Part shown: positions 671 to 40,085 of the stretch, in pieces | How the letters are laid out: every line of letters starts with the position of its first letter | How positions within the stretch are numbered: position 1 is the stretch's first letter | From: Callorhinchus milii | Lineage: Eukaryota | Direction: 5' to 3' | Length of the DNA stretch: 64,000 nt | Assembly (NCBI RefSeq): GCF_018977255.1 | Contig: NW_024704742.1 | Coordinates: forward strand, 123,382,001-123,446,000 | Position numbers and translations under genes: made by a program | The notes under the pieces: model-generated | Database searches by the model: none | Seen by the model: the letters and a program-made list of their open reading frames with translations, nothing else | What the model was told of the DNA's origin: nothing

Positions 671-1860
671 CAGTTATAGGGGAGCAAAGCATCTGAGCCC
701 AATCCTGTCACCCACACTTTCACTTTACTGGTTTGTCACTGGACAGTTATCGGAAATAGGAAGGGAAACATTGCTGTGTTAACCTCATTAACCCAGGGAT
801 ATTGAGGTCAATTGGAGCATCTGTGCAACAACCTGAATGAGAGATCAGCTTCGTCTTCACAGCCTGCTATTAAGTCTTGATTTTCCAGGCTCATTTTTCT
901 GCTGAGCAGTGACTTTATCAATTCAGCCATCAGGAAGTAGCTAATGGCTGTATTGATTTGTACCGTCTCTGATACGCAACGTTAGGTTTGATTATCACCT
1001 CGTATTATACAATCGGCTGATTTCCACAAACAGACAGTAGTATCACAACTGATTTTGTTTCCAGTTTGTCATCAACCAGAAGTTTCTCCAGTAAAACAAG
1101 TCCCCCTGTGGGGACATTTACACTACTATGACTGTGCTTATGTAATCTGCCAACGTCCACTGTCTAAGTTCTCAGATGATGACTGACCACTTTGATGAGA
1201 TGGTGGACGCTGTTCATTTTGTGGCTTCGAGCAGAGGAGGAGGCAAACAAAGAGAAGAATAAATTCAGTGCCTTGTGATGAAAGAAATTCTCCCCACTCC
1301 ATCTCCTGAAGCCTCTGCTCGGCTGGCTCCAGCCTCCAGCTTGTCCCTCATCCCCTTCACTCCACCATCAGCAGCTTTTGCCCCTAAATTTTGGAACTCT
1401 CTCCCCAATCTCTTTGTCTTTCCCCTTCTTTAACCATTTTCAGATCATGCCTGAAGACCTTACGTTTCAACCGTACGTACGGTCACCTCAGCTCAGCATC
1501 AGACTTCACCACTGTTAAGTGCTTCAAGATGCTACGCCGTGTGAACTGTGCTATTACAATACAATATGATATGATATAATAATATAAGGTTCCAAAGCAC
1601 TATTCAGAAAGAGAAGGGAATTTCTTTCAGTGTCCAAGCCAACGATCTTCCAGTGCGTTATTCTCATCCTCGCTATGTATGGGACGTGGCTGATGCAAAT
1701 GGCTACACATTTAGCCCACAGTTGCTGAAGTTTACAGTAATTACTTGTGAAGCACTTTGAGCAGTTTCAACATGAGAAGTTGCAATGAAAATGCAAGCTC
1801 TTTCTTTTGTAATATGGCAGAGAGTTACTTTTACTTTATTTTTCAGTGTCTATCGGAATC

Positions 1861-1924
1861 ATGCCAGCAATAATACTGGTAATACTGTCGACATGCTTTC
1901 AGCTCAGTGTGTGTCATGAGGGGG
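1861..1924 (+). CDS. Gene A signal-peptide exon ([21 protein letters not shown])
   Basis: Acceptor tttcag at 1841-1846, ATG at 1861, hydrophobic leader, donor gtaagt at 1925; 64 coding nt, phase 1. Confidence 0.75.
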
Positions 1925-16900: not shown

Positions 16901-19900
16901 TTTGTGCAGTCATCTGCCTGGTTTCGCCCACAAAATATTCAATCAATTCACTTTACAGTGTATCCTGTGAAGCGCTTTGAGACGTCTCGAAGATGTGATA
17001 AGGTGCTATATCAAATGCAAGGATTATTATTATTTATTATGATTAGCTCCTACTACAACTACTTTTTCCCTCTTTCTCTTCAGTAACCCAGTAATTAAGG
17101 TGTATGGCTTATTCTTGGCATACACTCACAGTTGGTAAAGGAGCCACTTGTGTGGCACTTTATCAAAGGCCTTTTGGAAGTAAAGGTGCAATACACCAAT
17201 TTGGGATGTTACATCCTCAAACAAATTCTTTAAAGTTTGTTGGCTGAGTTTTATTCCTTTTGAAACAGTATTAGCTGTCATTTATTAGGGTATTTCCATA
17301 CAGGAGCTCTTCAATTAGTTGATTAAACAATAATTAATATTGATTATATTTGTCTTCTGGTGATTTGATCATGGGGTAATATGTGCAATTGTGGCTCAAT
17401 ACAATTTACTATTTACATAACGTCTCCCATATCAGAAAGACGTCTCAAAGCACCTCAGGCGCTGACACCATCAGCATCCAAGGCTGCACTCTCCACCTCT
17501 CAAAGCCAGTCAGGAACCTCGGCGTTTTGTTCGACCCTGAGCTGTCCTTTCTCCCTCACATCCGCACCACAACTGGCACCGCCTTCCATCACCTCCGGAA
17601 CATCGCCAGACTACGGCATTACCTCACCCCTCACGCTGCTGAAACCCTGGTTCACGCCTTTGTCACCTCAAGGCTGGACTATGGGAACTCTCTCCTCGCC
17701 GGCCTTCCCGCCACCTCCCTCCACAGGCTGCAGGTCATTCAGAACTCTGCAGCTCGTGTACTGTCCCGCACCAGGCTTCGGGACCACATCACTCCCACCC
17801 TCGCTCGCCTCCACTGGCTCCCCATCCCCCAGAAGATTGATTTCAAGATCCTCATCCTCACCTACAAGGCCATTCACGGCCTTGCTCCCTCCTACCTCTC
17901 CAACCTACTATCCCCCTACCTACCTGCCCGTACCCTCCGTTCCTCTGGCTCCGGTCTGCTCCACGTCCCCCGCCCCAACCGCCTTACCATCGGTGGTCGG
18001 GCCTTCAGCCTCTCAGCCCCCAGGCTCTGGAACTCCATCCCCCAGTGCCTTCGCCTTGCTTCCTCCCTTTCCTCCTTCAAGGCCGGTCTCAAAACTTTTC
18101 TCTTTGACCGAGCCTTCAGCTCCCCTCTCGACTCTCTTCCCACTCCTCGCTCCCTCCCTTCCCTCCCCTCACCCTGACCATTTCCCCCCTTGCTCGGGTC
18201 ATAACCCAACTGTGCAGCGCCTTGGGACGTCCTGACGTGAAAGGCGCTTTATAAATGGAATCTTGTTGTTGTTGTTGCTGTTGTTTTACACTGCTGCTGG
18301 ACATCCAAGTTGTGGGTGGGAGCCAATGGGGTGGGGAGGGGAAAGATGACCAAAAGGGCAGTGAAAGAGGTAGGTCTTGAGATGGGCCATGAAAGAGGGG
18401 AGGGAGATAAGGACTCGGAGGGATTCTGGGATGGAGTCACAGAGAATCGGGGCTGAATTGCTGAGCCCCTGGCCATTGATGGTGGGACGGAGAGAGTGGG
18501 ATTCTGTAACCTGGAAAGCTAAGCTAAAATAATGGGAACTTACAGATGCCGTTTGTTGTAGCAGAGCAGTACAATCACTATTGTGATGGAAAAGAAACTC
18601 CTACGATCGCTTCAATTTCTCCCTTAGCAACAAAAAAATTAAATGTTCAATCTGTAAATACAAAGTGTAACACTTTCAGAACTACAATAATAGTCTGCGG
18701 GAAGAATATGCGCAGTTGCTGCGTGCAAATTGGCTGCCTCATTCACCTACAAAATACACAGTTACTACACTACCGTATTTTCTGTAAAGTGCATTAAGAT
18801 GTCCTCCAACATGAAAGGTGCTACATAAAATGATATTATTATTACCTACACATATGTACCCACAACAAAACTCGCTAAATAATAACTAGGATCAGGAATC
18901 TTGTGCTAATCAATAAACTGAACACAGATTGAATACTGTGTCTCCTTAAGGAAAAAAAACAAATCCATTCTAAATTTTATTTGGATTCTACACATCTTTA
19001 GAATATCTTGTATCAGGAAATGCATCTTAAATTGATTTAAATTCTGTATATTATTTCCGAATGGAACCTGGTCTAAGATTGAATTTTGTTTCCTCGGGAT
19101 AAATTGTTTTTGAATTGTTGTACCTTTAGACCTGGTCATCTCTATGTATGTCATTGGCTGCCAGGGAGCCTGAATAATGTAACCAATTAGGTCAAGTTTT
19201 CTTCCTAGAAGTTCCAATTTGTATTGTGTCAGTATCAATGAGCATTGCTTCATTGACTGTATAACTGGTATTTTTCACGGCTCATTGAATTTTGTTGTAG
19301 AACTTCTCACTTAGAAGTTTTTGCGTGGAACTAAATGAGCAGCGAAAAACATATAAATTAAAACATACCCTCACTTTAATTCGACAGACAAGTGCAATAC
19401 TCAGGGATCGCATTGGTCCATGAAGCATGAATTGGGCCTATTCTACTGCCAAAAAGTGGACACCAAATTAAATAGGTTTACATTACTGTATGCTTTATAT
19501 TTTAGCTCTGACGTGGTATTCGTTGTTGAATGCTGTAATTCAATTTTGTTTGATGTTTGTAGGAGAACTTGCACCAGTACAAAACATCAGTGCTTCTCCG
19601 TATGGTGATCAGTTGGTAGTGGAGTGGAAGTCTCCAAGTTCCACTGTAAATGGTTACGTAATTGAATGGTGTCTGGCTGAACTGGACAATGATCAATGTA
19701 GTGAGCAGGTGCATTGGAGATATGAACACAATACCACTGAACAGGCATTTGTACATGGTAAGTACTTCATAATGGCAAATAATTAATAACATCAACAACT
19801 CGCATTTATTTAACGTCCTTCACATAGGTCTGAGGCCGAGCAAAGGAAGAGATAGGCCATAGTTCTGGTGAAGAGATAGGCTTTTAGATGGAATTTGAAG

Positions 19901-22900
19901 ATGTGTAGGGAAGGACGAGACAGTGGGGAAGAGAGAGGGAGTTCCAGAGATTAGGAGAGTATTTGGTGAAGCCTCAGTCACTGATGGTGGCATAGAGGAG
20001 GTGGGGAATGCAAAGTTATCCCAAATTAACCAAGAGGAGGAAGTGAGCAGTAACGTGAGGTGACAGAAGGTCACAGAGATAGGGAGGTGCTCAGGTGTGA
20101 AGGGATTTATTGGGGAGACTGAGGGTCTTGAAGTCAATCTAGGAAATAGGGAGCCAATGGAGCCTGGCGAGGACGGAGCATGTTGATGGGTGTGCAGAGT
20201 TGGTGCGAGTGAGAATGCAGGCAGTGGAGCTTTGCCACCACTCCACTCCACACCACAGCAAAGCCTTTTTAATCCTCTCCAATGTTGGTATTTCATCTGG
20301 TGAATTGCATAGGTCATGATACATTACCAGAATTAGTAACTTAACCTCAATCTGTTTCTTCCGCAGAAAACATTGTGCCATTAAGGTGCTATAAGATAAC
20401 AGTTTATCCTCTATATAGTGATGGTCCTGGAGCTCCAGTTTCCATAAAAGCATACCTACAACAGGACTGTAAGTAAAGTCTAATAACATCACCCTGAAAA
20501 CTTTGGTAGGTGTCAGCCTGGCTCAATTGGTAGTAGCACTCTTGCCTCTGAGTCAGAAGGTTGTGGGTTCAAGGCCAATGTTGGCTCCTTGAGCCATGAT
20601 CATCATATTGAGCCAATCGTGGCAGGCACAGTCACATCATAAAGTCTAATTCACTACCATTAATCAATAGAAGGCCAGACATTCCAACTTGTGTTACCTG
20701 GTAAGATCATTTCTCTTAAAATGCAAGATCTCAGAAAATTGTGCAACGTTCTTCAATTCCATCTTAATATTGAAGTTGATTTTTCACAGATCTTGAAAAA
20801 AATGAGCTGTCAAATTAAAACTTGAATCTAAGAATGTTTCACAATTTCTACACAGTAAGACAAAATGGTCTTAACACCAACAACTTGCACTTATATACCA
20901 CCCTTTACGCAGGGCAGCATCTCGCAGTCTTACAGCCTAAGACTAGGTGGAATTGCAGGCTTTATATCTGTAAATGACTAGTTTACATTTTTCTTTTTCT
21001 TGCCTCTGAAGGTAGTGACATATGCTGAGCAGCAGATAAACGGTGCGAACGGTAGTAAAATTTTATCCTCTTCTCTCACCTTTTTTCAGGTCCAGCTCAA
21101 GGTCCAATAGTTCATCTGAAGAAGGTGGGAAAAACTGATGCGGAGTTTCAATGGGATGTGATTCCAGTAAAAGAACAGCGTGGTTTCATCACCAATTATA
21201 CCATATTTTATAAGAATCACAGTGGACATGGACATGCATCAAGTAAGTTTACCTTACTTATTATTGCTTCTGATATGAAACATTCATTATACTGCATGAT
21301 ACAGAGTCCTGTAGCTCAGTGGTTAGAGCACTAGCCTTGCAAGTGAGAGACTTAGGTTTGATTTTCAGCAGGGCGAAATGTTGGGCAAGTTTCCTTACTC
21401 CACACGCCTCTGTTTACCTAGCAATAAGTAGGAACCCAGTTGTTAGTCAATTGGCGGATCGCTTTTCCGGGGGTAATAATGTCTTAAAAAAAATTGGTTA
21501 CTTCAATTCATGACTGTTTAAGGGACACTGCTGTGCGCAATTGGCTGTCGCATTGCACCCACAAAATATACAGTCAATTCACTTTACAGTATATTCTGTG
21601 AAGCGCTTTGAGATGTCTCAAAGATGTGATAAGGCGCTATTCAAATGCAAGGATTATTATTATACTTACAACTGTAGTTGAGTTGTAACTGACCGAGCTG
21701 AAACACTGACCGCTGATTGTGGATTAGGCAGGGCGGTAAAGCAAGCCAGTTCTACTTAGCAGAGGGAGGGTTGGAAGGGTTTTAAACCCTAGGATTTAAT
21801 TTTCAAGCAGGGCAGAAACAAATGGTGGCATGTTTGCAGGCAATACCAAATTGAAGGGGGTTGCTAATACAGTAACAGAAGATACATAGACAGAATACAG
21901 ACATATCTGGATCGATTAAGGAGTTGAGCTGAAAAGTGGTAATTGTTTAATGTTGATAAATGTATGAAACTGGAACAAGCAATAACTGGTGGGGATATGA
22001 GATGAGAAGTAGAACATAACCCAGCAAAAGGATCTTGCAACTTGCTCTCTGAAACATTTAACATAATGTGTGTGTGGCAGAAAAAAGGTAGGCAAGCTAG
22101 ACTTTAATGCATTTAACTAAAAGAGAGAGATAGGTTGTAGGACGTAATGATTGAATTATACAATGCAGTCATGATTCTTCACCAGAAACCAAAATTCCAC
22201 CTGATCTTCATTTTTAAGACCATTTTGTCTTAAATGACAAGATAGCTCAGAATTGCGTAAAATTTCTAAATTCAGTCTCAATTTGCAAGCCTGTCTTTTG
22301 TAAGAACTGCAGAAAATTGGTTCCCAAGTTAAAACTGAATTGAAGAATTTTCCATGATCTTAAATTTTAAGACAAAATGGTCTCTTATCCGACTAAATCT
22401 ATTCAAGGCAAATCTGGTGTCCAGGCGGCATTGCCTTTAGTAGAAGCAAATAATCGTACAGATTTAAAAGGAAATTAGATTTCTGATGGCAGTGAGGGTT
22501 GAGAGCTATGACAAATATAATAAATGGGAGCAGCCAAGTGGATCATAATAATCTTTTCTTGTCTTGTGTACGTTATGTCATGTACGTTTAGGTAATTAAA
22601 GAACAACTCGAGGTGACCATTACTCTACTTAGCTGTTATTGATGTGCAGTGGGTCATCAGATGGCCTATGTAAAAAAATTCCATTATTTATTTTAATTTT
22701 TATTCTGGCATGTTTTCTGTTCAGATACAGTTCAGCAATTGCATCTCCATGGGTATTTATCAATGAGACATGGCATGGAACCTGCCATGAGCTGCAAGTG
22801 ACAAGTGTCCAAGCGGTCTGATTTCTTCCACAAGGATGAAATCAAATGGGAAAGTCTTTATGACTGCCAACCCGCAGGATGCCACTCTCCTTTTAAATGC

Positions 22901-25900
22901 TAGTGATAATCCCATATTGTGGCTCCAAGGACATATGGAATATTAAATGCCGTTATTAATGTTATCTAGTGGAGCTTTCACACATTTTGCTCCCATTGTC
23001 CAGAAATCTTTCCCTAAACCCCTCTGCTTCTCTCACTGCCTCTCTGCTTTCAAAACTTTTTTTTTGTCAAGTATTTTGTTTCAATCAGATTATGAAGATG
23101 CAAACACACGCGATGATTGCATGTGACCAGTAACGGAATTGCAGATTGTTCAATTTGCGAAAAGTTATCTCGTAAATTGTTTCCTTCAATGTAAACCAGT
23201 GTGTTATTTAGAACACTGTGGAAGCAGTTAGTTCCTCTTTCAACCGAACAACAACACTTTTTTNCAATCTGGTTTGAAAGGAAATGATTGCAATTGGCAA
23301 CATTTCCAAAGCTTGTCAGTTCCAGTAAATTATAAATCCCGTTCACATAAATCACAGCACCATATCATCTTCTTGGTTTCCTATCCACTTGATAACCGTA
23401 AGACCATAAGCCGTAGGAGCAGGAATAGGCCATCCAGCCCCTTGAGGCTGCCTCCCATTTAATAAGGTCATGGCTGATCTTCTAACCTAATAGCATTTAC
23501 CCGCCCATATCGTTTAATCCCTCTATCCTTTTCATGTTATTTCATTTATGAAAGTGTGCATAATTCTAAGGAGCATTATATAGGCTTTTATCAATGGTCA
23601 TCTAAAGAGCATAGATGTTATAAAGATTAGGCATCTTAGAAGCAAAATTCATCATTCACAAATCTAGAAATATTTGAGGAAACAACTAAATTGGTTTGCG
23701 TGGGTTTCCACATTCCAGTAAATTATGTGAAGCACTGTGAACCATTTCAGCAACACATTAAAGAGCTATATCAAATTCAAGGATTATTTATTAAATTTAT
23801 TATCAAATATGACTCAGGCTCCTGGAGCCAGAAAGTCTTAGGCTAAAAGAGCTTTTTGTCTTAAAATTTAAGTTTGAGCAGATTTGTGGAAAGTTCTGAA
23901 ATTCTTTAAGAACAGCAGAAAGCCAGCTTCCTAATTTCAGGCCCCAAAACTTAATGGTATATCAGCCAACTGGATCATTTGATTGTCTAAATGTATACCT
24001 AATATTTGTAGCATCCAATATCATTCTCAGACATATTTTTCCTGTTAATTTTGAAGATGTTAATAGATACAGCGTCACCTGGGAAGTAATCTCTGTGGAG
24101 ATGAGTTGATGACACGGTGACTTGCTTGGCAATGGAATATTAGAATCGAGTCAAACCACTGTGGTAGTCTTGGTTGTCTGGTTCCTTAGCCAAGCAGTCC
24201 ATAACTAACGTGTATAGCCTCCAATACCATTCTCAGACAGTGTTAATCCATTTATTTGTAGTGCTCCAGAGCAATGCTGTTAACAGATCACCCAGCCTGA
24301 CTCATCATCAGGACTTGGATGGGTAGATCTTTGTTGTAATCACATTTAAAAGCATAGAAACCTGTGACTCAGTAGGCCATTGTAATAATGCCCAGGTTTG
24401 CTCCTCCAATGAAATCACGATCAATCTTAATGCTGCTGGCATCCAGAAGACCTGTGTACATCATGGATAGGAAGCCAGCAAGTTAGAGCAGTAGCAGGAA
24501 GTGTACTGAAGTGCTTTGATACGTCTCAAAGACTTGATAAGGCGCTGTATCAAATGCAAGGATTAATATTATTATTATTATTGCTTGGCAGTAGGTCCTA
24601 TATTGTAACGAAACCCATTGTATACTATAATGTGGTCAGACTATAGTTGCTTATATTCTTGTGCACACCTTTTTGCAGATGTGACTGTTGACTCAGCAAG
24701 TCGGAAATACATGCTGACTAATCTAAGAGCTGATACCTTGTACCAAGTGCATGTTATGGCATCTACCGCAGAGGGAGGCACTAACAGTATCCCCATCGTT
24801 TTCAAAACATTACAATTTGGTAAGTAGGAAATTGGATAGATTTCTTTTAGGAAATAATACCTTGGGATATAGTATATAGTTTGCGACATGGCATGTGACT
24901 GCCAGGATGGTGGATGGACCTTGGGCAAGCAATTCTTCGAAGAGGAAGGTCTTGAGAAGAGGCAAGGAAGGGAGGGAGTGAGGCGAAGGGACTGTGGAAT
25001 GGAGTTCCAAAGGGTGGGATCAGAGAGGCTGAAGGCCTGACCGCCAATGGTGGGGCAGACCTGACGGGGAACATGGAGCAGGCCAGAGTCTGCTGAGCGG
25101 AGGGAGCCGACAGATTGATATGGCGTTAGCAGATCACAGAGATAGGAGCAAGACTGTGGAGGGCTTTGAAGGAGATTTTTGACTCAAAAATACATTCCAT
25201 TTCACTGTAATTCCTATGAAGCGCTTTGAGGCATCCTCCCACCTTGAAAGATGCTACACCAAATGCAAGGATTAATAATAAAATATCAAGGAAAAAACAT
25301 GAAACAAGGTATAAGTCACACTGCTCCTGATACCATTTTCTCATTTACACTAAAGTTGACTGACAAATTTTAGCTATTGTATGACACTTTCCAAATAAAA
25401 TGAAAACACTTGCCACTCAGAGCTTGAACAGTTTTCAATGTTATTGCAGGCTCACAGCCTCCTCTCTCTCCCCACTATCAATCCTTTCTGCTATATGTCC
25501 TCCCATTCAACAACAACAACAACAACAAGAAGATTGCATTTATAGAGCGCCTTTCACGTCGGGAGGACGTCCCAAGCGCTGGACAGTTGGGTCGGGACCC
25601 GAGCAGGGGGGAAATGGTCAGGGTGAGGGGAGGGAGGAAGCGAGGAGGGATTAGAGAGTCGAGAGGGGAGCTGAAGGCACGCTTGAAGAGAAAGGTCTTG
25701 AGACTGGCCTTGAAGGAGGAAAGGGAGGAAGCAAGGCGAAGGCACTTGGGGATAGAGTTCAATCTTCTAGGTTACAGTATTTTTATTTACATCCTCTGTT
25801 TTACATCTAAACTTATACAAAGGTCAGCTGATTTACATCTGAAAAATTATGCAACAAGCGAGATACACTGATAGATGTAAAATAACAAGCACAGCATCAA

Positions 25901-28900
25901 TATCTGGCATTGGCAACCTTCCCTTGTGGAGTCCTGTAGCTCAGTGGTTAGAGCACTCGCTTTGCAAGTTCAATTCCAGGCAGGGCGAAACCTTGGGCAA
26001 GTTTCCTTACTCCACACGCCTAATAATAATCCCTCCAAAAAAACAAAAACAATAATTAAATTGGTCATTTTCAATCTACGACTGTTTGTGGGACATTGCT
26101 GTGCGCAATTGGCTGCCGCGTTCGCCCACAAATATACAGTCAATTCACTTTACAGTGTGTTCTGTGAAGCGCTTTGGGACGTCCTCCCGACGTGAAAAGC
26201 GCTATATCAAATGAAAGGATTATTATTATTATTATTCCCGGGAGGATTGAACTCTGTAAAAATAGTAAAAACATGTAGATATCTGACTCATGTGGAAAAC
26301 CATACTTAAGAATATCCAAACCATATTGAGAGTTTCATACATTCATGCCACCTACGCATGGAAATTTTCCTGTGTCTTGAATGTATTGCACACTCTGTTT
26401 CTGAAGGAACACACCCGCTTACACAATTCTGAAAAGTATTAGGCATAGGTTGATGAAGGCCAAGACTTGGCAGTGCCAGAATGTGCGTGGGGTAGCAATC
26501 AAAAAATGTGCGTGAGAATACTGACTGACAAATTTCCTGCTGCTTGTTTAGCTGGGACCACACCCAATCAATAGGGATTTGGTTTAAAGATTAACTGGAG
26601 CCAATTGGGAAGAATTCCATTCCCAGTGACTGGTCTTTCTATCTAAGTCCTGTGGCTAAGCCAAGCAAGTTGGTATGGCATCAACGGTGCCTTGGAGTTA
26701 AAGCTTGCAATCCTGGTGCTCTTTCAGAATCCTGGGATTTCAGGATTTTAATGCCCCAAATTCCAGGATCCTGAATCTTACCTCGTCAAGGACGCCTGCA
26801 GACGTTTTCTGCACCAATGGGGGTACCTCAGAAAAGCTTTCTGCATGGGGAGGGCACCCGGAAATTTAAATACCCGCCCATCTGCTGCCACCAGCTAATC
26901 CTAACAGCAACGTGTGACCTGCTTCAGGTGGAGCAGGAAGACTTGCTTCCTTCTGCCCAGGTTAGGCCTTTATACAATACAGAAATCCCAGGATTTTGAG
27001 AGCACTATTCCCATCTGGGATCCTGGGATTGGGATTCCCAGGATTGCAACCCCTAGTTGGAGTACTATGGACTTGCTTGGCTCAGGAACTGAACTACCAA
27101 GGCTTACAACATTGCCACAGAGGGTTGTCTCAAATCTGATATTCTGTTCCCAAGGAAATCACCTGGACACAGCACAGCCCCGAGGAAACCCCACTTATCA
27201 TATGATTCCATCACTAGAATTTTTAGTACTTAGTATTAAATAGTATTTAGTACTTAGTATTAATTTTTTAGTACTTAGTATTGAATCTAAGTATTAAAGT
27301 CAAAGCTTTGTTGAGTTTTGCAGTTAACTGTGCAGCCATTGCTTTGTGTCTGTGAGTATAATGAGTTTGTCTTTCCATGTGTTTTTCAGCAAAAGGAGAA
27401 ACTGAAGCGATTGCAATTTGCATTTTCCTAGGAATCTTGTTCTTTGCTGCTTTATCCCTGTTTGTGTACTTTAAGCACAGGTAAATACCACTGATTGATG
27501 CATATTACAATGATAACTCGTTATCCATATTATTGGAGTTCTGCGGATTCACCGGAGTCAAAAACCAGACTACCAGACTGATACACAGGATAAACTCAAT
27601 CCCGATATTCCATTGCCATTTACCAGCTCAGCTCCAAGGAGATCCTGCTTTTATCCCCTTTCCCCTGGAGGATAGTTTAATTGAGAAGTTTTTTTTGAAA
27701 AAGAAATTCAGTAACTAATTAAGACTTAATTAGTTGCTTGCCTCCAAATCTGACTATCCAATGCCTTGGGATGTCCTCCTGACATGAAAGGCATGATACA
27801 AATGTAATTTTGTATTGTATTGTAAGACTGCATTTAAGATTTATCATCAATTCTGCCTGAATTTTATTTTGTGTTTTAAGATAAACTGGTATTACTGGCT
27901 AAAACTAATTGGAATTTTCAATCTGTAGTTTACAAAAGGATTAACACCAAATTCTTAGCTAGTTAATTATTCTTTTCTATTTCTTTAGAATTACAAAAGC
28001 CTCTGTTTCCAATATCCCAGATCCAGCAAATAGCATTCACTCTGCAAGTTCACCACAAAGTTCAGCTCTGGTAAGTTGGTTAAATAGAAATTTCAGCAGC
28101 AAAACTCAGAATTACATGTGTTGTAATGATACCTGAGTTTCATTATCAGGTGCTGACTCGTATATAGTTTCTGAGGCATCATAAAAAAATCTAGTGGCGA
28201 GTAGAATTGTCAGTTTGGCTTAGTTGGTAGCTATATTGCTTCTCAGTCAGACGTTGATGGTTGAAGCCTCACATTGGGACATAGATTGAGCGCATACTGA
28301 CTGTCGATCCAATGCAATCTGAGCGAGTGCTGAATTGTTGGAGGTGCTGTTCTCGTCTGACTTGAATGAGCCTTTGATTGGACAGATAGTTGCTTATCAC
28401 TCTTGACTTCATGAATATTCTACTGAGACTTTTAAGCAAGTAGACTGGATAGTGGTCAGATCTCCCAGATGATTTTTCTTCCTCTAACCCAGAGACACAA
28501 ACGACAATTCTATCATTGACATTATTTGTGAGATCGGTCAACCCAGCTATAGACTCGGGATCAAATTTAGGACTTTTTGTCTATGTGCTTAATATAAGGC
28601 CACATAGAACACCCATGTAGGCATGAGATGAACCATAAATTACTGTTACAGTTAACTTTATGATACCAATCAGGAAACTTGCTTTTGCAATCATTAGAGT
28701 CTGTTGGATTCTCATTTTTCCATTGCCAAACAATCACAAGTTTTATTACTGACCCTGAGTTACAACAAGGCTTGGTATCTCTCAGCTCCAAGGTATTCTA
28801 CTTGTGTTTGCAAGATAGCTGGAATATAAAAATAAGGAGCTGCTGCTCCAGTTATATAGAGTGCTAGTTAGACCTTATTTGGAGTTTTGGGCACTCAATC

Positions 28901-29706
28901 ATAGAAAGAATATATTAGTCATAATTCACTCGATTAAAACCCGGGCTGAAGGAGCATAGATATGATGAGAGGCTGGGTAAACTCAGATTATATTCCTTAA
29001 AGCAGAGAAGGTTAAGGGATGATTTGATTGAGGCATTTAAAATAATAAAAGGAATTGACAGGCTAGATAGTGGTTTCATAATCCAACCTCATAAATTAAC
29101 CCAATCCTTCTGTCTAATAGAGAGGGTCTAGCCTTAAATAATAACTAAAACTGAGTTACGGTTGAATTAATAGGGATATTTAAAAGAGAAACATAGTTAT
29201 TTGGGTAGTAGAGGTATTAAGAGATATGGTGACCAAGCGGGGCATTGGGATTAAATGATATGACAAGAACTAATAAAATGATGGAAAAGGCTTGATGGGC
29301 TGAACGTCCTCCTCCTATCCCTATCCTCCTGTCCGCTGTTCCCATGACTGATTGATAATCACTCAAATGTCAGTGCATTTATCTGCATTTGCTTAAAGTA
29401 TTTGTGATGTGAAAGGCGCTATAGAATTGTAATTTGTTGTTGTTGTCTTGCTTTTTATTTCAGAGCACCTTTAGTCTGAGTCAAGAGCCAGAAAAAGGCG
29501 GAGATGTCACTGTCAGCAATGTCAGTGTCAACACTCTGGAAGAGGAACAGAGCCACAGCTGTGATGCAAGTGACTCAGGAAGGAACTGTTCAAGTCATAT
29601 TGAAGATACAGCTTTAATGGAGAGCAACAATGACCAATTTTCATCAACAAGGGTCTCTGTACGATCAGAGTCCAGTCAGCTACTATTGGGCAATGAAGAA
29701 AACTAG
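1861..29706 (+). CDS. Gene A: gp130/IL31RA-family class I cytokine receptor (IL31RA-like architecture, no Ig D1), spliced CDS of 14 exons, ~651 aa
   Basis: Exons 1861-1924, 8302-8407, 9585-9754, 10878-11035, 11653-11812, 13053-13132, 14224-14434, 19563-19757, 20367-20468, 21090-21242, 24679-24819, 27390-27480, 27989-28070, 29464-29706. All GT-AG, phases consistent, total 1956 nt open. Contains signal peptide, four-Cys CBM, WSEWS, three FNIII, TM and a Box1-like IPDP. Confidence 0.9.
2436..2862. repeat. Unclassified dispersed repeat (second copy at ~30730-31260)
   Basis: Collinear similarity from ggcagga..tggaag..cagaccagtcactgggg through gctgaccaaaaaaa. Confidence 0.8.
4245..7240 (+). mobile_element. 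L2-clade LINE, 5'-truncated ORF2 (APE endonuclease C-half plus reverse transcriptase), one frameshift near 6180
   Basis: GDFN, THxxGxxLDLV and SDH endonuclease motifs; [27 protein letters not shown]-terminal HITPxLxxLHWLP; 3' tail ending in (TTG)n. Confidence 0.95.
6968..7152 (+). repeat. ~46-bp pyrimidine-rich minisatellite, 4 copies, in the L2 3' UTR
   Basis: Unit ccccctcctc(g/t)ctccctcccttccctcccctcaccctgaccattt, repeated. Confidence 0.9.
8302..8407 (+). CDS. Gene A exon, CBM N-domain first half ([23 protein letters not shown]...)
   Basis: PPxKPxNxSC...CxW signature; ccag acceptor and gtgagt donor. Confidence 0.9.
9585..9754 (+). CDS. Gene A exon, CBM N-domain second half (...[10 protein letters not shown]...[10 protein letters not shown]...)
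   Basis: Second Cys pair and a WVEAENxLGK motif as in gp130; phase 2 to phase 1. Confidence 0.9.
10878..11035 (+). CDS. Gene A exon, CBM C-domain first half ([11 protein letters not shown]...LKYDLRYQ...W)
   Basis: KTEPP resembles IL31RA; LKYxLRY FNIII strand; ag/gt boundaries. Confidence 0.9.
11653..11812 (+). CDS. Gene A WSXWS exon ([21 protein letters not shown])
   Basis: WSEWS motif, close to gp130 LKPFTEY..IRCM..GKGYWSDWS; 160 nt. Confidence 0.95.
12629..12943 (+). mobile_element. tRNA-derived DeuSINE-type SINE, short subfamily
   Basis: A box tagctcagtgg and B box gttcaattc head, Deu-like core gctgtgcgcaattggctg, L2-like tail, (TTA)n. Confidence 0.9.
13053..13132 (+). CDS. Gene A FNIII-1 exon a (PSQGPALW...ILIMWK)
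   Basis: PSxxPxxW...WK pattern; ttag acceptor and gtaatt donor. Confidence 0.88.
14224..14434 (+). CDS. Gene A FNIII-1 exon b (DANGIILGY...AFNSAGESP)
   Basis: ANGxILxY and AxNSAGxSP motifs; 211 nt. Confidence 0.92.
15115..15852 (+). mobile_element. Older L2 3' fragment
   Basis: Degraded [23 protein letters not shown]; tail gtgaaaggcgctatataaatgtaattttgttgttg. Confidence 0.85.
16660..17040 (+). mobile_element. tRNA-derived SINE, long subfamily
   Basis: Same head and core plus the internal gcagtaagtaggaacccggttgttagtcgattgg segment. Confidence 0.88.
17450..18275 (+). mobile_element. Young L2 3' fragment nearly identical to 6279-7240
   Basis: Its ORF matches ORF 6232..7005 with only a few substitutions; same tail. 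Confidence 0.95.
19563..19757 (+). CDS. Gene A FNIII-2 exon a (LVVEW...YVIEWC...HW)
   Basis: YVIEWC motif; tag acceptor and gtaagt donor. Confidence 0.92.
20367..20468 (+). CDS. Gene A FNIII-2 exon b ([26 protein letters not shown])
   Basis: Close to gp130 CYLITVTPVYADGPGSPESIKAYLKQ; 102 nt. Confidence 0.92.
21090..21242 (+). CDS. Gene A FNIII-3 exon a ([11 protein letters not shown]...[10 protein letters not shown])
   Basis: GFIxNYTIFY motif; splice sites present. Confidence 0.92.
21304..21662 (+). mobile_element. tRNA-derived SINE, long subfamily
   Basis: Same structure as the copy at 16660. Confidence 0.88.
24679..24819 (+). CDS. Gene A FNIII-3 exon b ([16 protein letters not shown]...FKTLQF)
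   Basis: TLYxVxxMAxTxxGG motif; 141 nt. Confidence 0.92.
24915..25175 (-). mobile_element. Degraded L2 3' ORF fragment
   Basis: FKALHSLAP...LKTFLF remnants on the minus strand. Confidence 0.65.
25508..25762 (-). mobile_element. L2 3' end fragment
   Basis: Reverse complement of [23 protein letters not shown] plus tail and (TTG)n. Confidence 0.88.
25928..26236 (+). mobile_element. tRNA-derived SINE, short subfamily
   Basis: Near-identical to the copy at 12629, with a small deletion in the head. Confidence 0.9.
26699..27055. mobile_element. Degenerate hAT-Ac-like non-autonomous DNA element
   Basis: Inverted ttgcaatcctgg (26705-26716) and ccaggattgcaa (27038-27049); right end reads TAGGGGTTGCAA on the minus strand; repeated subterminal atcc(c/t)gg(g)a motifs. 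Confidence 0.55.
27219..27297. repeat. Short tandem repeat (tttagtacttagtatt) x3
   Basis: Read directly from the sequence. Confidence 0.75.
27390..27480 (+). CDS. Gene A transmembrane exon ([31 protein letters not shown])
   Basis: ~22 hydrophobic residues followed by KHR; GExEAI as in gp130. Confidence 0.9.
27989..28070 (+). CDS. Gene A Box1 exon ([15 protein letters not shown]...), degenerate Box1
   Basis: 82-nt exon, phase 2 to 0, IPDPxxS retained; tttag acceptor and gtaagt donor. Confidence 0.85.
29464..29706 (+). CDS. Gene A terminal coding exon (short tyrosine-free tail with RSESSQLLL)
   Basis: Acceptor tttcag, phase 0, Box2-like VSNVSV, dileucine motif, TAG at 29704-29706. Confidence 0.75.
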   Translation, partial: STFSLSQEPEKGGDVTVSNVSVNTLEEEQSHSCDASDSGRNCSSHIEDTALMESNNDQFSSTRVSVRSESSQLLLGNEEN

Positions 29707-30729
29707 ATTTAGGACGAGAGATGTGGAATTCAAAACCTCTCCAAATACTTGACTGAGAGTATCATTGGAGGGTAAACTATAGGAATAAGAAAAACATTCA
29801 TACTCTTCTTGAGCAGTTAATATATCCACTTGTATAATGAAGCAGTTGACTGACTCAGCATGAACTCCATTTGCTAGAAAGGTGTACCATATGTCCATCA
29901 TCTGTGAAAGGCCATCTAACCTTTAGTTCAATTTTGTGTTTTTTTATTTTTCATTTGAGACTTGTTCCCTCTACTTCTGCTTTCATACGTTCAGTCAAAT
30001 GTCTGGATTGAAGCCTCCCCATAACATTAGGCCACCTGACTAAGGCCCCCCCACTCAGGCTCCCTGGGCTTTCCGCAGGACAGCAAGGCATGGCCGCCAT
30101 AGTCTGTGAGTGAAAATGTTCCTGGCGTGGGGGGGAACTGAGTAAATCTCAGGGTGTCCTCACCTCTGATTGGCCGATGGACCTGTCAGTCAAGCCAATG
30201 GCTCACCTTTAAGACAGGTGCATCCTTCATACTTTCTGCCACCCCAGTTTGTCTCCTCCTGTTCCTTCCCTTGTTTCCCCTACTTGCAAACTTTGGCCCC
30301 CATTTTTCCTCGTCCCTCTCCACCCTCCAAACTGCCCACCCGCCCAACTCTGACTACCATCCCATCTCCAACCTGGTCTTTCTATGGAAAATCCTGGAAC
30401 ATATTGTGACCACACAACTTCACTCACACATTTCCTCCACTCTTGCTGTATCCTATATTTATCTGTCTCTACATCTCAATCATTTCAGTAAGCAATGACA
30501 ATGTACAGCAAATTAAATTAAAAGAGTTCACTATCGTTCAGTTATTCCTTGTTGCAGTTTTCCTAATGGCCCTGCAGGAAGCCCAGGAAACTGATTTGTT
30601 ACAAGTTTTACAGTCTGACTTATCTCTTTGCTTTACCTCTGTATTACTCTTTCTCAGTCACCACTATTCTCCGTTGGGGGGTGCAGGAGGTAAGCGGGAT
30701 CTCCAAAGTGACATAGTAGCCAACAGAAT

Positions 30730-31260
30730 ATCTGAGTTGAGCCAGCCCTCTGTGACGTTCTCGGTAGTCCGGATCCTGATGGGTCAGCAGTATTCCAGAG
30801 CACTGCTGATGACACCACAGCCAGCCTGGCTCATCGGCAGGACCTGGAAGGGCAGACCAGTCACTGGGGCAGGGATTCTTCCCGCTCAGCTCCTGTTAAC
30901 CCTGTATGCCAACCCTAACGGATAAGGTGGTCCGAGCTGGATAAGCAGCAGGAAAGCTTGCCGGACAGCAATATCAGTGGCAAGTTATGCTTTTTTAGCT
31001 GGTTAGACTCCAGCAGTTACTCCAATGCACACTCTGGGGTCCCCAAGCCTTGGTTCTTGCCAATCTGCGCCTAATACTTTCCGGAATTAGATAAGCAGGA
31101 TGAGTCCCTCCAGGGAAAGATTGCACATTCCATTCCAACAATCTATCTCTGGTATTTCTATGTGTATGTGGGATGCATGGAAATCTCACCTTGGTTTGGA
31201 TACTCTTTAGCATGGTGACAGGTTTCCACTTGTGTCAAGACACCCGGCTGACCAAAAAAA
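30730..31260. repeat. Unclassified dispersed repeat, longer copy
   Basis: Matches 2436-2862; its gagccagccctctgtgac also occurs inverted at 10-27. Confidence 0.8.
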
Positions 31261-31579
31261 CAAAAATCGGTTACTATCAATTTCAGTTGCAGCCAACTTC
31301 TCTCCTTTCAAGCCTATTTTGTGGAATGATTTGTTTATGTAAGCACAAATGACTTTCATTCTCCAAGATATAAGGACTGAAATATATCAGTAATCACACC
31401 AGCTTGTTTTCCAATTAAAGAGTATGCTTTTAATTCATTGAATATGATAATATACACATATACATACATACAGACTTTAAAAGGAGGAATTAAAAGAATT
31501 AAACACAATATTTTATAAAATACATATTTTACTGATAATTTTTTTCGCTTGGAAAATGGTATTTTTCTTCACATTGTAG

Positions 31580-33954: not shown

Positions 33955-34620
33955 TTAAGTTAAATTGTTCAGTTCATGTTCCAGCAATTCCAGTGTAATA
34001 TATGACCAGTCTATGTCATCCAGTTGACTGTTCTGTTGCTGGGGATCCAATGATCCAGAGTCTTTGGATATTGCCTTGATTACTTCATGGTTTTCATCAA
34101 AGCTGGGATCTGCTACCAAGCTCTCCAGGCTCTGTAAATTTTGGATTGTGATTGGTTTCATGGAGGACTTAAGATATGGATTTGTTTGAATAATTTCCTG
34201 AAACATATCACTTATTTGAACGTACTGTGGACATCCGTTTCCTGGAGCTGTTTGCCAACAATTTATCCCAGTTTCCTGGTCGTTCCTGCTTCCTTCCAAA
34301 GAATGTGAAAGTAGAGGCTGGTTTGACATTGAGCTGCTGGTGACAGGAGTTTGGCTCTTGTAGCCGTCTTCAAAGATGGTGTACATTACTGTATCCAAAA
34401 TGTCCTGTTCCAGCTGGCCACCACCTCTGATTTTATCATTGGGAGTGCTCTCCTGAGAGGAAGATGTAGTAGATGGACCTTCCATTAGGTGCTGATTCAA
34501 AGCATCATCGTTCCATAAATCGTATTGTTTAGTTTTTGCATGTAGACAGAAGACTTCCAATGTACTGAAGTCAGAGTTGACGACAGTTTCTGGATCCAGT
34601 ATTTTAGGAAATTGATTTTT
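33955..34620 (-). CDS. Gene B terminal cytoplasmic exon (YTIF, YKSQ, SNQPLL, NPYLKS, YITL)
   Basis: Acceptor at 34621-34622, 221 codons open to TAA, includes track ORF 33955..34560. Confidence 0.9.
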   Translation of the reverse strand, partial: KNQFPKILDPETVVNSDFSTLEVFCLHAKTKQYDLWNDDALNQHLMEGPSTTSSSQESTPNDKIRGGGQLEQDILDTVMYTIFEDGYKSQTPVTSSSMSNQPLLSHSLEGSRNDQETGINCWQTAPGNGCPQYVQISDMFQEIIQTNPYLKSSMKPITIQNLQSLESLVADPSFDENHEVIKAISKDSGSLDPQQQNSQLDDIDWSYITLELLEHELNNLT

Positions 34621-37600
34621 CTAATAATAAAAAGGCTAGTTAAATCATGTTTCAGAATATCACCTGCCTCTATCCCTATCTCACCCCCAATACAGCCAAT
34701 ACCCTCATTCTTGCTTTCTTCACCACCAGACTTGAGTTCTCAGATGTTCTCTTCACCGACCTTCCATATTCCATCAATCCATGGGAGCCCATATCCTCTC
34801 CCACAGTAGGTTCCACGTGACCAGCACACCATCCTGACTTCCTGCCCCGCAGCAGATCATTTACATATCATTCCACACCCTTGACCCACCTCTGCAGTCT
34901 CTCCCAGCCCCACTCTCCTACTCAATCCTACTCCACAAACATGAACCTGTTGCAGTCCCTCGGCCCCCTCATTCAAAACCAGCTTGTTGACGTGATGGGA
35001 GAACGATAGTTTGGGTATTCTAGAAGGATGAGATCAGATGGGCCAAAGGGCCTTGATAATCTGAACTAATCTTGTGATCTTGTGCCCACCTAATGAGAAA
35101 TGATCATGGAGAGAGCTTACCTGAAGTTGAGAATCGGGCAGCCAGCCAGCCATACTGCTCTCTGCGGGGTCTGGGACATTAGGCCAGATGACCTTCACAA
35201 TCCTGACAGGATCATGGGAGATTGATATTTAATCATAAATACAATAATCATAGAGAGTGTGGACATTTCATAAACTTTTACCTCATTTATCTTGGCATTT
35301 AAACCGTCCACATCGAAATAATCTCCCAAAAATGTGGAATTAATTGATGACTCATCTCTTTGCTGTTTCTATGATGTCATTGGTGCAAATTTGCAGCTGT
35401 ATTTAGCAGTTAGTTCATTTCTAATTTAATCTTATTCTATAAAGTGCTTCAAGACATTTCTTTTCTGCGATTGTCACTATTTACATGTAAGTGGTTATAT
35501 ATGTTTCTGTGGGGCAGAATGAGAGAATGAAAGAACTCCAATGAAATGGAGCATTAAACTTTAATTCAGGGAATCAAATGCTCCATAGAATTTACTCTCA
35601 AATAGAATGGGGTGATTGGAAAATCAAATGGAATATCTCAGCCACTCACAATGGAAATAGAGCAGTAACTGGCGAGCACGGAGGAGTCCACTGAGGGATA
35701 CTTAAGGGGTGGTGATGACCCCCTGATGTTGGTTATCGGGGGCGGGCAGGGGAAGCTGGGTGTACAGCAGAGGTGTGGGAATGGGATCAAGGGAGCAGGT
35801 GGTGGGTTTCCCAACGTAAATGAGGGATGAGAGGAAGATACGTCCAAAGATGTGGAAGGAGGGAGGATGTTGGAAGTAGAGGTTGGGGGAGGGGTGCTGG
35901 TAGACAGAGGCAGCTGAGTGAATCCGCTCGGAACCAATTAATCTAGAAGATGTTTGGCCGGGACACAGCAAAACTAGCTTTTTTTTAATAATGTCATGAG
36001 ATCTTTAACATCCATCAGAATAAGAGATGAGAATTTAGTTTAATGTCTCATTCAAAAGGAACGCTTCTCCAACAAATTACATGATTCCCGCATTATTTCA
36101 CTGAAGTTTGAAGCCTATTAACCTAGACTGTGATCTCAAGTCCCAGCGTGGGGTTTGATCCCACAACCTTTTGACTCGGAGATGTAATGAGCCAAACGGA
36201 CAACTAAAGTTGCTACAGAGGGCTGTAACTATTATCCTCTGGGTTTGTTGTCCTCCCAGATCAAACTCCTGGTGGAACATGTCAAGCAAAGTATTTTTTN
36301 GGAAAATCCCAAATTTTTCACACTCAATCAGATAGATTGTTACGGAATTGAAAGCAACTGTGAAACAAACTTAAGATTACTTCAATGATTTAAAGATAAC
36401 ATTAGAAGGTGATTTCCCCCCATCAACAAAATGTACTGACTTTAGTATATGCAATTATAATGCGTAAAACACCCGGACCTAGGTTTTGGGGGATTTTCAA
36501 TTGGAAAATAGTGCATAACCTTCTAAAAGAAGTCTGTGAATACCCCCATCACATTTATTTTCTAGCTCCTGAGACACTACCCCAAGTAAAGGGCACCATA
36601 TACATGCAAGAAGTTGTTGCTGTTGGTGCCTCCTTTTGATGGGAATACATGAGTTATTATAATAATATAATCCTTGCATTTGATATAGCGCTTTTCACGT
36701 CTTCTAAACGTCCCAAAGCGCTTCACACAATATACTGTAAAGTGAATTGACTGTATATTTTGTGGGCGAAATTGGCAGCCAATTGGACACAGCAGTATCC
36801 CACAAACAGTCCTGGATTGAGTGACCAAATTATTATTGTTTTTTTTCTTGAGGGATTATTATCAGGTGCGTGGAGTAAGGAAACTTGCCCAAGGTTTCAC
36901 CCTGCTGGGAATCGAACCCAAGTCTCTCGCTTGCGAGACGAGTGCTCTAACCACTGAACTACAGCACTCCTATTACTTGTGACAGGCAGTAATAGTACTA
37001 GTAGACTACCAGAAAAGGTCAATTATCAAGTTATCTCTATGCATTGAGTATTTTATCTGAACAGTTAAATTACATAAACTGCTAACGGTATGCTTAAAAT
37101 TAAATCATACTCACGATTTCTTATAGCAACCAATTAGTAAAATAAATATTATTATGATGCAGAAAAGAGGCACAACGATAGCCACGATATCTTGTATCTC
37201 TGCAAATAAAATGATCCACTGGTTAGTTATTTGAAGAAATCCAGCATAAACCTTTAATGGGAATATTAACATTCAGCTTTTCTGAGGATTCATTAGGTCA
37301 ATGTCAAAACAATATCTCGTTATTAGGCATTTTGTCCAACTTTAAATGCTCTAACTATGGTCTTGCTGGCTTATTAAGCTGCTTTGTATCAATGCCATCA
37401 GAATAATCTAGCCGTGCTTGTGCATACATGTAGGTGGCCTTTTTTTAAACATTATAAAAGCTGTATTACATACATCCTCTTTCCCCTTTCAATCTTGCCC
37501 AAGGTCAGTTCTCATGAGACCAGAATAACATATCTCAGATGCTTTTTTCCACTCAAGGAGTATTTTATGCTTCCATTTCCCCAATGATAACTTTTTCAAC

Positions 37601-40030
37601 CACAATGACTCCCTAGCCATGAGGTTAAGCACACTCCGCAACTGCTGCTTTCAATGGTTTTCAAGAGTCCAGGATATCTCCCATTCCTAATTTTCCCTCT
37701 CTCTCCACAGAGAAGCACAGCCTAGCTCCATGGCACAAGGCAAAAACTAGAACATCACTTGTGGGCAAATGTACATTGAGCCTGTATCCCGGTGCACCTC
37801 TGCGCAAATATGTTGGTACAACACAATCCAGTGTATATATTGCCCTGTCAAGCTTGGTATGTGGAACAGAAAAATGCATTGAAGACAAGTACCACAGTAA
37901 TAAAATTCTCCCTCTTATCAGAGTAGTTTTATTGTCACGTGTACAACTGGATGAATGCAGTGTAGCTTATTGAGAAATAACTGTTGAGATATTAATATCT
38001 ACAGTTTTACTTACCGAACAAAATTGTATTGAAGAATATTGTTGAGCTGTTTTTGCCACCCTTCACTGTAGATGCCATTACGAGCACTGTGTACATAGTA
38101 TTTTTCTGCAGAGATCTCAGAGTATATTCCCGAAAACTTGAGTTCACTGTTACAGCTGGAAGGCAGTAGAATTGCATTTAGAAAGAGAGGAAACAGATTT
38201 GCTAGTCACTCTGCTTTTTAACCCCAATTTATAAGCTTCAGACACTGAAATGGACACTTAGGTGAGGTAGTGGAGGTGACTGTGGAAATAACCTCAGCAA
38301 ATGTCAGGGCCGCAGGAGAGGGAAAAACATTTTAATATAATAATGATGATAACAATAATAATAATAATAGCATCCCATATGCATATAGAAGTGCCTCATA
38401 AAAACATAAAGTGAATGACCAAATGTCCTATACATCGAGAGAAATTTGCTTCTCTGTTTGAATACTGTCACGAGATCTTCAATGTTTACCTTAGTCCAGT
38501 GGTGACCAACACATGGCCCACGGGCCGGAAGTGGCCCATGGGGCCATTAAGAAATAGCCCGCCAAACATTTGCACTAGTCTACGTTAGTCGGATTGAGTT
38601 CAATGTTTTGTTTCTAGTTTTTTTCTTGATTGGATATTTCTTGATTTTTGGTATAAATATTCAATTAAGACAATTTATTTTGTTTATTTATTTTGATCAA
38701 AACTGTGGGCCACCACTGCCTTAGACAAACCAGCACTCCATTGGGGATTTAATTCTGTGTTACCAGTGGCTCCTTTCATTTTGGCAAATGATATATGGAT
38801 CAATGTAATCTGCAACAAATTTGTTTCAGTAACACTGAGCAGGATATTCCTATGGAAGGTACTGCTCAACTATCTCCCTGTGATGCACACTCCATGTGAG
38901 TACTAAGAACACTAGCATCTGTAGTCAGTCACAGCACTGACACACATCTGTCACCTCATATTAGTTTTATTAATCCATCACAAAACACATGCCCTCTCAT
39001 TAACTGGATGCAATGATATGGTGCTTAACAATAACTTACAGTTTTCACTGTTATTGGATTTGTAAAAGATGGTGTAATTGGTGATGAATCCAAACTGACT
39101 GTCCAATGGGATTTCATCCCACTTGATTGTAGCTTCTTTTGCCTTCACATTCTGAAAGCGAACATGTGGACCTTCCTTTGGAGCTGAAACAAAAGTTCTA
39201 GTTTAATGTGCTGAAGATAATTTGTATTGTTATTGTATGGAGACCATTAACATGCGGGGGAGGGGTCTAAAATTTCCCCTGGGTGGAGAATGACTATTTA
39301 TGTAGCATTTTAGAGCATTCAGAATTTGGAAAAATTGTTGAATTCAGTCTTAACTTTGAGGCTAGTTTTATGTAGATCTTAAAAGATCTGTAGTTTTTAG
39401 AAGAAACGCAGCTTCAACAGAATTTACAGAAATGCAGCTTCAAAATTAAGCTTGTTATGTAAGAATTATTATTATCTGATATTATACTTAAACAGAGTAA
39501 ATCTAGACCAAGTTGGATGAAATGCTCTGAAACTCTAGCCCATATGAATTACTGTTGTTGAATTTTACCTCAAATTATTTTTTTCAAACATGCTAGTTTT
39601 TCAGAATAACTATTGTATCAGTGTCATAGATCAATTACTTAGCAGCGCAGAGTGAGGTGGTAAAACAGATCATTTAACAGTGGAAAATGATTAGCAGTGG
39701 AAATTGCTCCTCACTGAAATGATATTTCTTAATACACTAATTTCCACACTATTAATTCACAGGTACACACAGACAAACATTAATGCAAGAGTGCTCGACT
39801 GACAATTCTGAGAATTGCTGCACACTGCAAGTCATTAAACCCTGGTAAAAGTTAATTGAACAAATATCAACAGCTCCTTGATGGATTGCTGAATCCTTAG
39901 AACAAACGCATACACATACATACACACAAGTATTCATGAATTAAGACATTATTAACTTCATCTAGATACTGAAGTGAATGTTTCCTTTAAATTTTGTTTT
40001 ATAGATAATATTAAAGTATGCCACAGGATG

Positions 40031-40085
<55 letters not shown>

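Follow-up and report, generated by a model that had tools for sequence, protein, structure and literature searches.

gp130 (IL6ST) is the shared signaling chain of IL-6, IL-11, LIF, OSM, CNTF, and IL-27, and its residue W666 is needed for JAK1 binding. IL-12Rb1 has no N-terminal Ig domain. In published structures, gp130 domains D2-D3 contact CNTF, CLCF1, LIF, and IL-6 at site II, and D1 serves site III of IL-6 and IL-27 (PMC10022904). The gp130 mutant W652A is reported to bind JAK still, with no STAT3 response (bioRxiv 10.1101/2025.10.10.681590). Human IL6ST truncations without STAT sites are dominant-negative; where the dileucine remains, as in S789*, the receptor does not accumulate and its inhibition is milder, falling mainly on IL-6 and IL-11 (PMC7971136, PMC12288962). 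In Drosophila, the short receptor Latran antagonizes its neighbor (PMC2914635). For cartilaginous fishes, "three copies of GP-130" are already published and were interpreted as broadening IL-6 signaling (PMC6238376). Here, we describe one such gene, gene A, in a 64,000-nucleotide stretch of the elephant shark (Callorhinchus milii) genome (assembly GCF_018977255.1, contig NW_024704742.1, positions 123,382,001 to 123,446,000; hereafter the window). Gene A is a spliced, conserved gp130 paralog that has no canonical docking sites for STAT3 or SHP2/SOCS3. We hold, with a little better than even confidence, that it is an old tandem duplicate of IL6ST, formed before the chimaera-shark split and remodeled, as its sequence suggests, into a STAT-silent inhibitory or scavenger chain that would bind at site II only.

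Gene A has no D1 domain

Gene A lies on the + strand and consists of 14 exons with a fully open frame of 651 amino acids; all 13 introns are GT-AG with matching phases. This bears out a first-pass annotation, made from the letters of the window alone, that the ectodomain and transmembrane (TM) exons are open. RefSeq XP_007890430.2 has a tail identical to that of our model and is truncated at its 5' end. The parts of gene A are as follows, in window coordinates.

1847..1924, + strand: signal-peptide exon, with 14 nucleotides (nt) of 5' untranslated region (UTR), ATG at 1861, and 64 coding nt; the length of the X1 record 1 contig fits this start
1925..8301, + strand: intron that joins the signal peptide directly to D2, in which neither an Ig-like D1 exon nor a remnant of one was found; L2-type long interspersed nuclear element (LINE) at about 4142-7000
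8302..8407, + strand: first D2 exon, 106 nt as against 121 nt in gene B (15 nt less); 5-amino-acid in-frame deletion relative to shark orthologs
9585..9754, + strand: second D2 exon; contains the YYV loop of site II (matching gp130 Y190/F191/V192) and the counterpart of D215
10878..11035, + strand: first D3 exon, V252 equivalent kept
11653..11812, + strand: second D3 exon, WSxWS motif reading WSEWS
13053..13132, + strand: first D4 exon
14224..14434, + strand: second D4 exon
19563..19757, + strand: first D5 exon
20367..20468, + strand: second D5 exon
21090..21242, + strand: first D6 exon
24679..24819, + strand: second D6 exon, its 3' end matched by loose contig ends at 27389 in runs X1-X3
27390..27480, + strand: TM exon, with the gp130-type start GETEAIAI
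27989..28070, + strand: Box1 exon, reading (R) and 27 further residues; Box1 at 28002-28025
28005-28007 and 28008-28010, + strand: Box1 substitutions by alignment to gp130, Val at W652 and Ser at P653
28017-28025, + strand: Box1 PDP, kept
28047-28049, + strand: interbox W666 position, Ser
29464..29706, + strand: last coding exon, ending at TAG 29704-29706; the Y767 segment is absent from it
29605-29607, + strand: Y759 (SHP2/SOCS3) position, Asp; GAT where IL6ST has TAT
29662-29688, + strand: RSESSQLLL in the last coding exon; EE follows at 29695-29700
29707..30100, + strand: 3' UTR, within spliced contigs

The predicted protein has a cytokine-binding module with four conserved cysteines and WSxWS, three membrane-proximal FnIII domains, and a single TM helix. 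By sequence it belongs to the tall class I receptor family, yet it does not qualify as gp130 proper. An AlphaFold model on a nine-row alignment was uninformative (predicted local distance difference test, pLDDT, 46.8; predicted template modeling score, pTM, 0.24).

A D1 profile was built from 25 of 26 chosen proteins and searched over 194 kb. It matched D1 of C. milii IL6ST (E 1.8e-40) and D1 of gene B, the convergent neighbor of gene A (E 4.2e-33), and nothing else in the 194 kb below E 0.26. A D1 exon or remnant was also sought with the profile, tblastn, and blastn across the 45 kb from IL6ST to the exon at 8302, where only noise was found. In one contig of run X1, 1555 nt precede the TM exon, against 1554 expected from the D1-less model; the absence of D1 from the mRNA is inferred from this length, as the 1924>8302 joint itself lies outside the mapped region. 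All seven shark ortholog models with an intact N-terminus run from the signal peptide into D2 with no D1, and Pfam assigns an Ig domain to IL6ST and gene B and none to the ortholog of Heptranchias. Because axolotl IL31RA and gene B retain D1 and a mole IL31RA is without it, D1 was lost at least twice at this locus. The first-pass annotation had not noticed the loss of D1, which shifts the mechanism to binding at site II only, given the gp130 structures (PMC10022904).

The tail has lost the gp130 docking sites and kept the dileucine

Tail residues were numbered through a mammalian gp130 whose numbers match the human positions in the cited papers. The tail of C. milii gene A has 110 amino acids and no tyrosine; one Tyr, invariant across orthologs, lies where the TM segment meets the cytoplasm (VYFKH). 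The first-pass annotation had called Box1 (SVSNIPDP) broken by comparison with gene B, which does read IWPNVPDP, although the proper comparator is the upstream IL6ST. What has gone in C. milii is the W-P ahead of the two PxP prolines, both of which are retained. Single PxP prolines are variable even in true gp130, since C. milii gp130 (VWPNVADP; L009, a Box1 exon that precedes window position 1 by about 41,300 bases) has Ala at P656 and Mobula gp130 has Ala at the P658 position.

At W652 gene A tails carry V or C and at P653 S or Q; P656 is P, P658 is P or A, W666 is never Trp, Y759 is Asp, Y767 falls in a gap, and positions 786-787 are LL. In all nine tails (C. milii and eight sharks) the equivalents of W652, P653, W666, Y759, and Y767 are gone. 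None of the nine has the W652/W666 equivalents, versus 12/12 full-length shark and ray gp130 tails, which also all have YSTV (a truncated Pristis gp130 model was excluded from this set). Missing from gene A are YSTV and all four gp130-homologous YxxQ sites, and a remnant of the distal YxxQ region sought 3' of the TAG was not detected (best tblastn E 0.048). Among 95 family representatives with a TM segment and a tail of at least 60 amino acids, Box1 was recognizable in 88, and both Trp were missing in five of these.

The dileucine LL is kept in 9/9 gene A tails, all of which end shortly after an invariant LLL-x-x-EE. Thirteen tail residues are invariant among the nine, and six of them (S, LLL, EE) fall within the last 13 amino acids (any-window P 0.033). 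The retained endocytosis motif of the first-pass annotation thus stands, and the dileucine is under apparent selection. In 8/8 shark tails (P0009-P0013, P0129-P0133) Cys stands both directly ahead of LLL and at the W652 equivalent, whereas C. milii has it at neither; that these are acylation sites is speculation.

Gene A is spliced and has orthologs in sharks

Contigs from four of 12 listed sequencing runs, belonging to two studies, were mapped to 27300-30100; none of the listed runs is recorded as RNA and the RNA type was guessed, but the joints are GT..AG. The 28070>29464 junction, which the first-pass annotation had proposed for checking, is present in 4/4 runs, and 27480>27989 in 3/4; loose contig ends match exon 24679-24819 in 3/4. 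Gene A is therefore spliced in all four. No contig differs at the TAG; three extend at least 200 nt beyond it and the fourth ends 7 nt beyond. Besides a change at 29588, taken up below, differences occur at 29496 and 29499, both of them synonymous. Another, Tyr-containing last exon would have undone the earlier reading; among six phase-0 candidates in 28070-33900, none is gp130-like, and the contigs use 29464 alone. Read-through into the intron after the Box1 exon (21 amino acids, one Tyr) is seen in no C. milii contig of the four runs; a similar short read-through isoform is predicted by RefSeq in Heptranchias.

Orthologs were found in nine shark species, with the docking-site losses described above common to every tail: Heptranchias perlo, Scyliorhinus canicula, S. 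torazame, Mustelus asterias, Chiloscyllium punctatum, C. plagiosum, Hemiscyllium ocellatum, Stegostoma tigrinum, and Rhincodon typus (partial, no tail). Gene A firmly predates the chimaera-shark split. No ray or skate ortholog was present among the best 120 of 161 matches, though ray gp130 and gene B proteins were; this may be loss or missing annotation. For Carcharodon, Cetorhinus, Heterodontus, and Pristiophorus, gene A was likewise absent among the matches listed, though gp130 or gene B proteins were there. Protein identity per domain, C. milii against sharks, is 55-68% for the five ectodomain domains of gene A, versus 42-71% for gp130, and 27-45% for the tail, versus 71-74%. The equivalents of the site II residues Y190, F191 (Tyr, as in C. 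milii gp130), V192, D215, and V252, whose roles in gp130 have been described (PMC10022904), are kept.

A candidate antagonist that would bind at site II

Because the parts that relay a signal are lost while the cytokine-binding face and the internalization tag are kept, gene A would probably dampen or clear cytokine signals. Judged by human gp130 structures and mutants, it would compete with gp130 to bind site II of an IL-6-family cytokine. Without D1 it would be unable to complete an IL-6/IL-11-type hexamer, whereas in a LIF/OSM/CNTF-type complex it would replace gp130 beside LIFR or OSMR, bringing no activatable JAK and no docking sites; JAK may bind it without being activated, as with gp130 W652A. 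The dileucine would then internalize the complex, giving a tunable antagonist or cytokine sink with no build-up at the surface. In its specific form, a dedicated membrane antagonist and scavenger of gp130 signaling, kept since before the chimaera-shark split, that would engage IL-6-family cytokines through site II alone, obstruct LIFR/OSMR/gp130 complexes, and remove the ligand through dileucine-driven uptake, the proposal is tentative and falls somewhat short of probable.

Several observations weigh against the antagonist reading or qualify it. The P2 proline of Box1 (P656) is invariant in 9/9 tails, and P658 is present in 5/9. Shark tails have one to three cytoplasmic Tyr in 8/8, and two of the eight (S. 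canicula, Mustelus) have a YxxQ just after Box1, with His in S. torazame; this site is not homologous to those of gp130. In C. milii itself, one contig of run X4 (depth 11.6) has G>A at 29588, which turns TGT into TAT in codon 29587-29589 (+) and puts a Tyr into the tail in place of Cys, in the context YSSH and without a YxxQ; it is a possible allele. The absence of cytoplasmic tyrosine in the first-pass annotation thus holds for the C. milii genome and neither for this contig nor for the sharks. The Ser782 equivalent of STQPLL is kept in 5/9 tails and lost in the four carpet-shark tails. Three of the five family representatives without both Trp have a CQ-x-[IV]PD[PA] Box1, like the shark orthologs; we take these three chains to be of IL-27Ra type. 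The W164 equivalent is absent from gene A, and also from shark gp130. S789* has little effect on LIF, OSM, and IL-27, the setting proposed here for a D1-less chain, and the human mutants keep D1 (PMC7971136). Losing the STAT docking sites while keeping the ligand face, as a Latran-like decoy would, describes C. milii gene A in full and the shark orthologs in part.

Also on this side is a docking model of the gene A tail with the FERM-SH2 region of C. milii JAK1 (P0304, identified as JAK1 by PDB matches), which scored 0.41 versus 0.01 for the best control, with partner pLDDT of at least 47 and contact agreement between runs of at least 66%, a weak pass. The mark was reached by 51/78 solved complexes and 2/108 mismatches, but scores of 0.60 or less contained only 5/78 solved complexes and all four passing mismatches of 180; the score may come from likeness to solved JAK-receptor structures.

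This weak pass fits a different function, in which gene A is a positive partner like IL-12Rb1 or IL-27Ra: it would bind site II of a particular cytokine and carry a JAK, and a second chain with D1 (gp130, gene B, LIFR, or OSMR) would provide site III and the STAT docking sites. Mammals offer a precedent, as human IL-12Rb1 has no tail tyrosine and requires Box1, being needed for signaling because it carries TYK2 (PMC4945146). The invariant P2 proline and a Box2-like hydrophobic stretch that remains in C. milii agree with a JAK-carrying role, and the duplication of IL-6 in cartilaginous fishes makes a new ligand-receptor pair plausible (PMC6238376). Against it, all nine tails have lost both tryptophans and the first Box1 proline, P658 is missing from 4/9, the Box2 stretch is eroded in sharks, and the conserved part of the tail is not membrane-proximal; W652A alone abolishes gp130 signaling (bioRxiv 10.1101/2025.10.10.681590). 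We regard a positive partner as unlikely, though it is the main alternative. The earlier label "signaling-dead" holds for the canonical docking sites and is otherwise too strong, given the IL-12Rb1 precedent, the P2 proline, the JAK1 docking, and the tyrosines of the shark tails.

Gene A groups with chondrichthyan gp130 in the best tree

To place gene A, trees were built on D2-TM alignments, a careful tree with 30 of 70 aligned rows and a quick tree with 45 of 70. In the careful tree, gene A forms one clade (100/100) that is sister to chondrichthyan gp130 at 94/94; the quick tree gives the same sister group (Shimodaira-Hasegawa-like approximate likelihood ratio test, SH-aLRT, 95). Its last exon matches that of IL6ST with 61% DNA identity over 171 nt (E 2e-5) and has no comparable match in gene B (best E 0.049), and RSES-x-Q-x-LL-x-NEE is common to the gene A and IL6ST tails. 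The tail thus favors an origin from IL6ST.

Whatever the mechanism, gene A could instead predate the jawed-vertebrate split, or belong to the IL31RA/gene B lineage, and have been lost in bony vertebrates. Approximately unbiased (AU) tests, which count against our preferred origin, reject neither a duplication before that split (a gp130 clade without gene A, p 0.165) nor a link of gene A with IL31RA/gene B (p 0.135). The 94/94 support falls slightly short of the star mark, mammalian IL31RA (P0164) is likewise without D1, and lamprey IL6RBL3 is reported to group with IL6ST/IL31RA and to have no C-terminal tyrosines (PMC12284397), possibly as a parallel case. Gene A nevertheless shares its strand with IL6ST, and its tail matches IL6ST and not gene B in both DNA and protein. 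The mammalian loss of D1 is separate, because axolotl IL31RA and gene B keep the domain, and no bony-vertebrate protein of the gene A build was found among the 150 best profile matches. We consider either of these origins rather improbable.

Gene A might also be a non-signaling capture or trafficking co-receptor that serves gp130/LIFR complexes by concentrating, presenting, or transcytosing cytokine, thereby aiding or localizing signaling. A strongly conserved ectodomain, a silent tail, and a conserved sorting-type end would suit this role, and the family includes non-signaling helper chains (PMC7971136). However, gene A keeps the site II face of gp130, the same face that the signaling chain needs, and its tall stalk of five FnIII domains is unlike the short alpha chains of site I, so we think this role quite unlikely. 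A decaying duplicate, pseudogene, or assembly error, suggested by the fast-changing tail, the 5-amino-acid deletion in C. milii D2, and the lack of a ray ortholog among the matches inspected, is very improbable, because a 651-amino-acid open frame spliced in 4/4 runs with its stop intact has nine shark orthologs, an ectodomain as conserved as that of gp130, and its site II residues.

Neighboring genes and other features of the locus

Canonical C. milii IL6ST lies on the same strand as gene A, 38-79 kb upstream of the window, and carries a D1 exon, the Box1 sequence VWPNV, YSTV, and four YxxQ. On the other side is the convergent neighbor:

33955..60495, - strand: gene B, IL31RA-type, with D1, intact Box1 (IWPNVPDP), and a Tyr-rich tail

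The gene B tail is gp130-like, with Tyr at the 759 and 767 positions and a dileucine. RefSeq has gene B as two models, broken at the 57371/56234 junction, which is in frame and reads through. Its bamboo-shark cluster includes XP_043544791.1, labeled IL31RA in the supplement of PMC12284397, where it adjoins IL6ST XP_043544832.1; the gene A ortholog XP_043544805.1 is absent among the six matches listed for its accession prefix in that supplement. With canonical IL6ST upstream and gene B labeled through this cluster, the locus order is IL6ST, gene A, IL31RA-type gene B. The convergent position and IL31RA-type tail that would mark an IL31RA belong to gene B and not to gene A.

LINE fragments, which we take to be of L2/CR1 type, lie in introns of genes A and B at 4142-7000, 15138-15800, 17369-18200, 50952-51884, and 52934-55037. 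The copy at 4142-7000 has a 704-amino-acid open endonuclease/reverse-transcriptase-like frame and sits in the intron where D1 is missing. The D4 exon has two more matches in the genome (L004 and L005, G000:C1:138.35 and 138.40 Mb), with equal scores and 49 kb between them; these may represent another family member that was recently duplicated or is duplicated in the assembly. A second copy of the last exon of gene A was not found in the genome.

Comparison with known receptors

The gene triplication is already published. We found no description of the gene A architecture in the literature on shark gp130 paralogs, subscription papers lying outside this search, and gp130/IL6ST/IL31R gave no match in the readable supplement of the elephant shark genome paper (PMC3964593), whose main supplementary PDF may discuss three copies. 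Of the three gp130-like genes, one is IL31RA-type, and gene A looks built against STAT signaling, in contrast to the earlier reading of widened IL-6 signaling (PMC6238376). Within a single natural protein it would uncouple site II binding, JAK activation, and endocytosis, a matter of interest for the way dominant-negative human IL6ST alleles and gp130-based inhibitors work.

The closest system is gp130 itself, the best PDB match (E 3.9e-99), with which gene A shares the D2-D6 exon layout, the four D2 cysteines, WSxWS, the site II residues, the start of the TM segment, and the dileucine region. Gene A differs in having no D1, no Box1 W-P or interbox W, Asp at Y759, no homologous YxxQ, and a tail of 110 amino acids versus about 270. 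IL31RA shares the locus and family, and its mammalian form is D1-less, but its Box1 tryptophans and tail tyrosines remain, and the gene is on the opposite strand. The lack of an N-terminal Ig domain is common to gene A and to IL-12Rb1/IL-27Ra. These chains have a working Box1, however, and gene A comes from the IL6ST locus and matches IL-27Ra weakly (E 1e-7 versus 3.9e-99). The human IL-12Rb1 tail is also without tyrosine (PMC4945146).

Human IL6ST p.S789* is membrane-anchored, without STAT sites, with its stop just after the dileucine at nearly the point where gene A ends, and is dominant-negative for IL-6 and IL-11 (PMC7971136, PMC12288962). The human dominant-negative forms are disease or rare alleles with D1 and Box1, most of them without the recycling motif and accumulating, whereas gene A is a fixed, separate gene; if the antagonist reading is true, it is a natural combination of deleted-D1, W652, and S789* mutants of gp130.

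The first-pass annotation considered a membrane-bound inhibitory member of this family unusual, but Drosophila Latran/CG14225 is a precedent for an inhibitory gp130 relative, as a tandem duplicate adjoining a gp130-like receptor gene, with a shorter tail and no YxxQ (PMC2914635). Latran lacks the membrane-proximal FnIII repeats and is reported not to act through faulty Dome internalization (PMC2914635). Gene A, unlike Latran, has kept the stalk and the dileucine and lost the Ig domain, and the two are inferred to be of independent origin. The Latran study raised the question of whether short non-signaling receptors have a controlling role in vertebrate immunity as well (PMC2914635), for which gene A is a conserved and testable candidate. 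If our inference holds, gene A works as a short antagonist of the Latran type and is, by analogy, its vertebrate counterpart.

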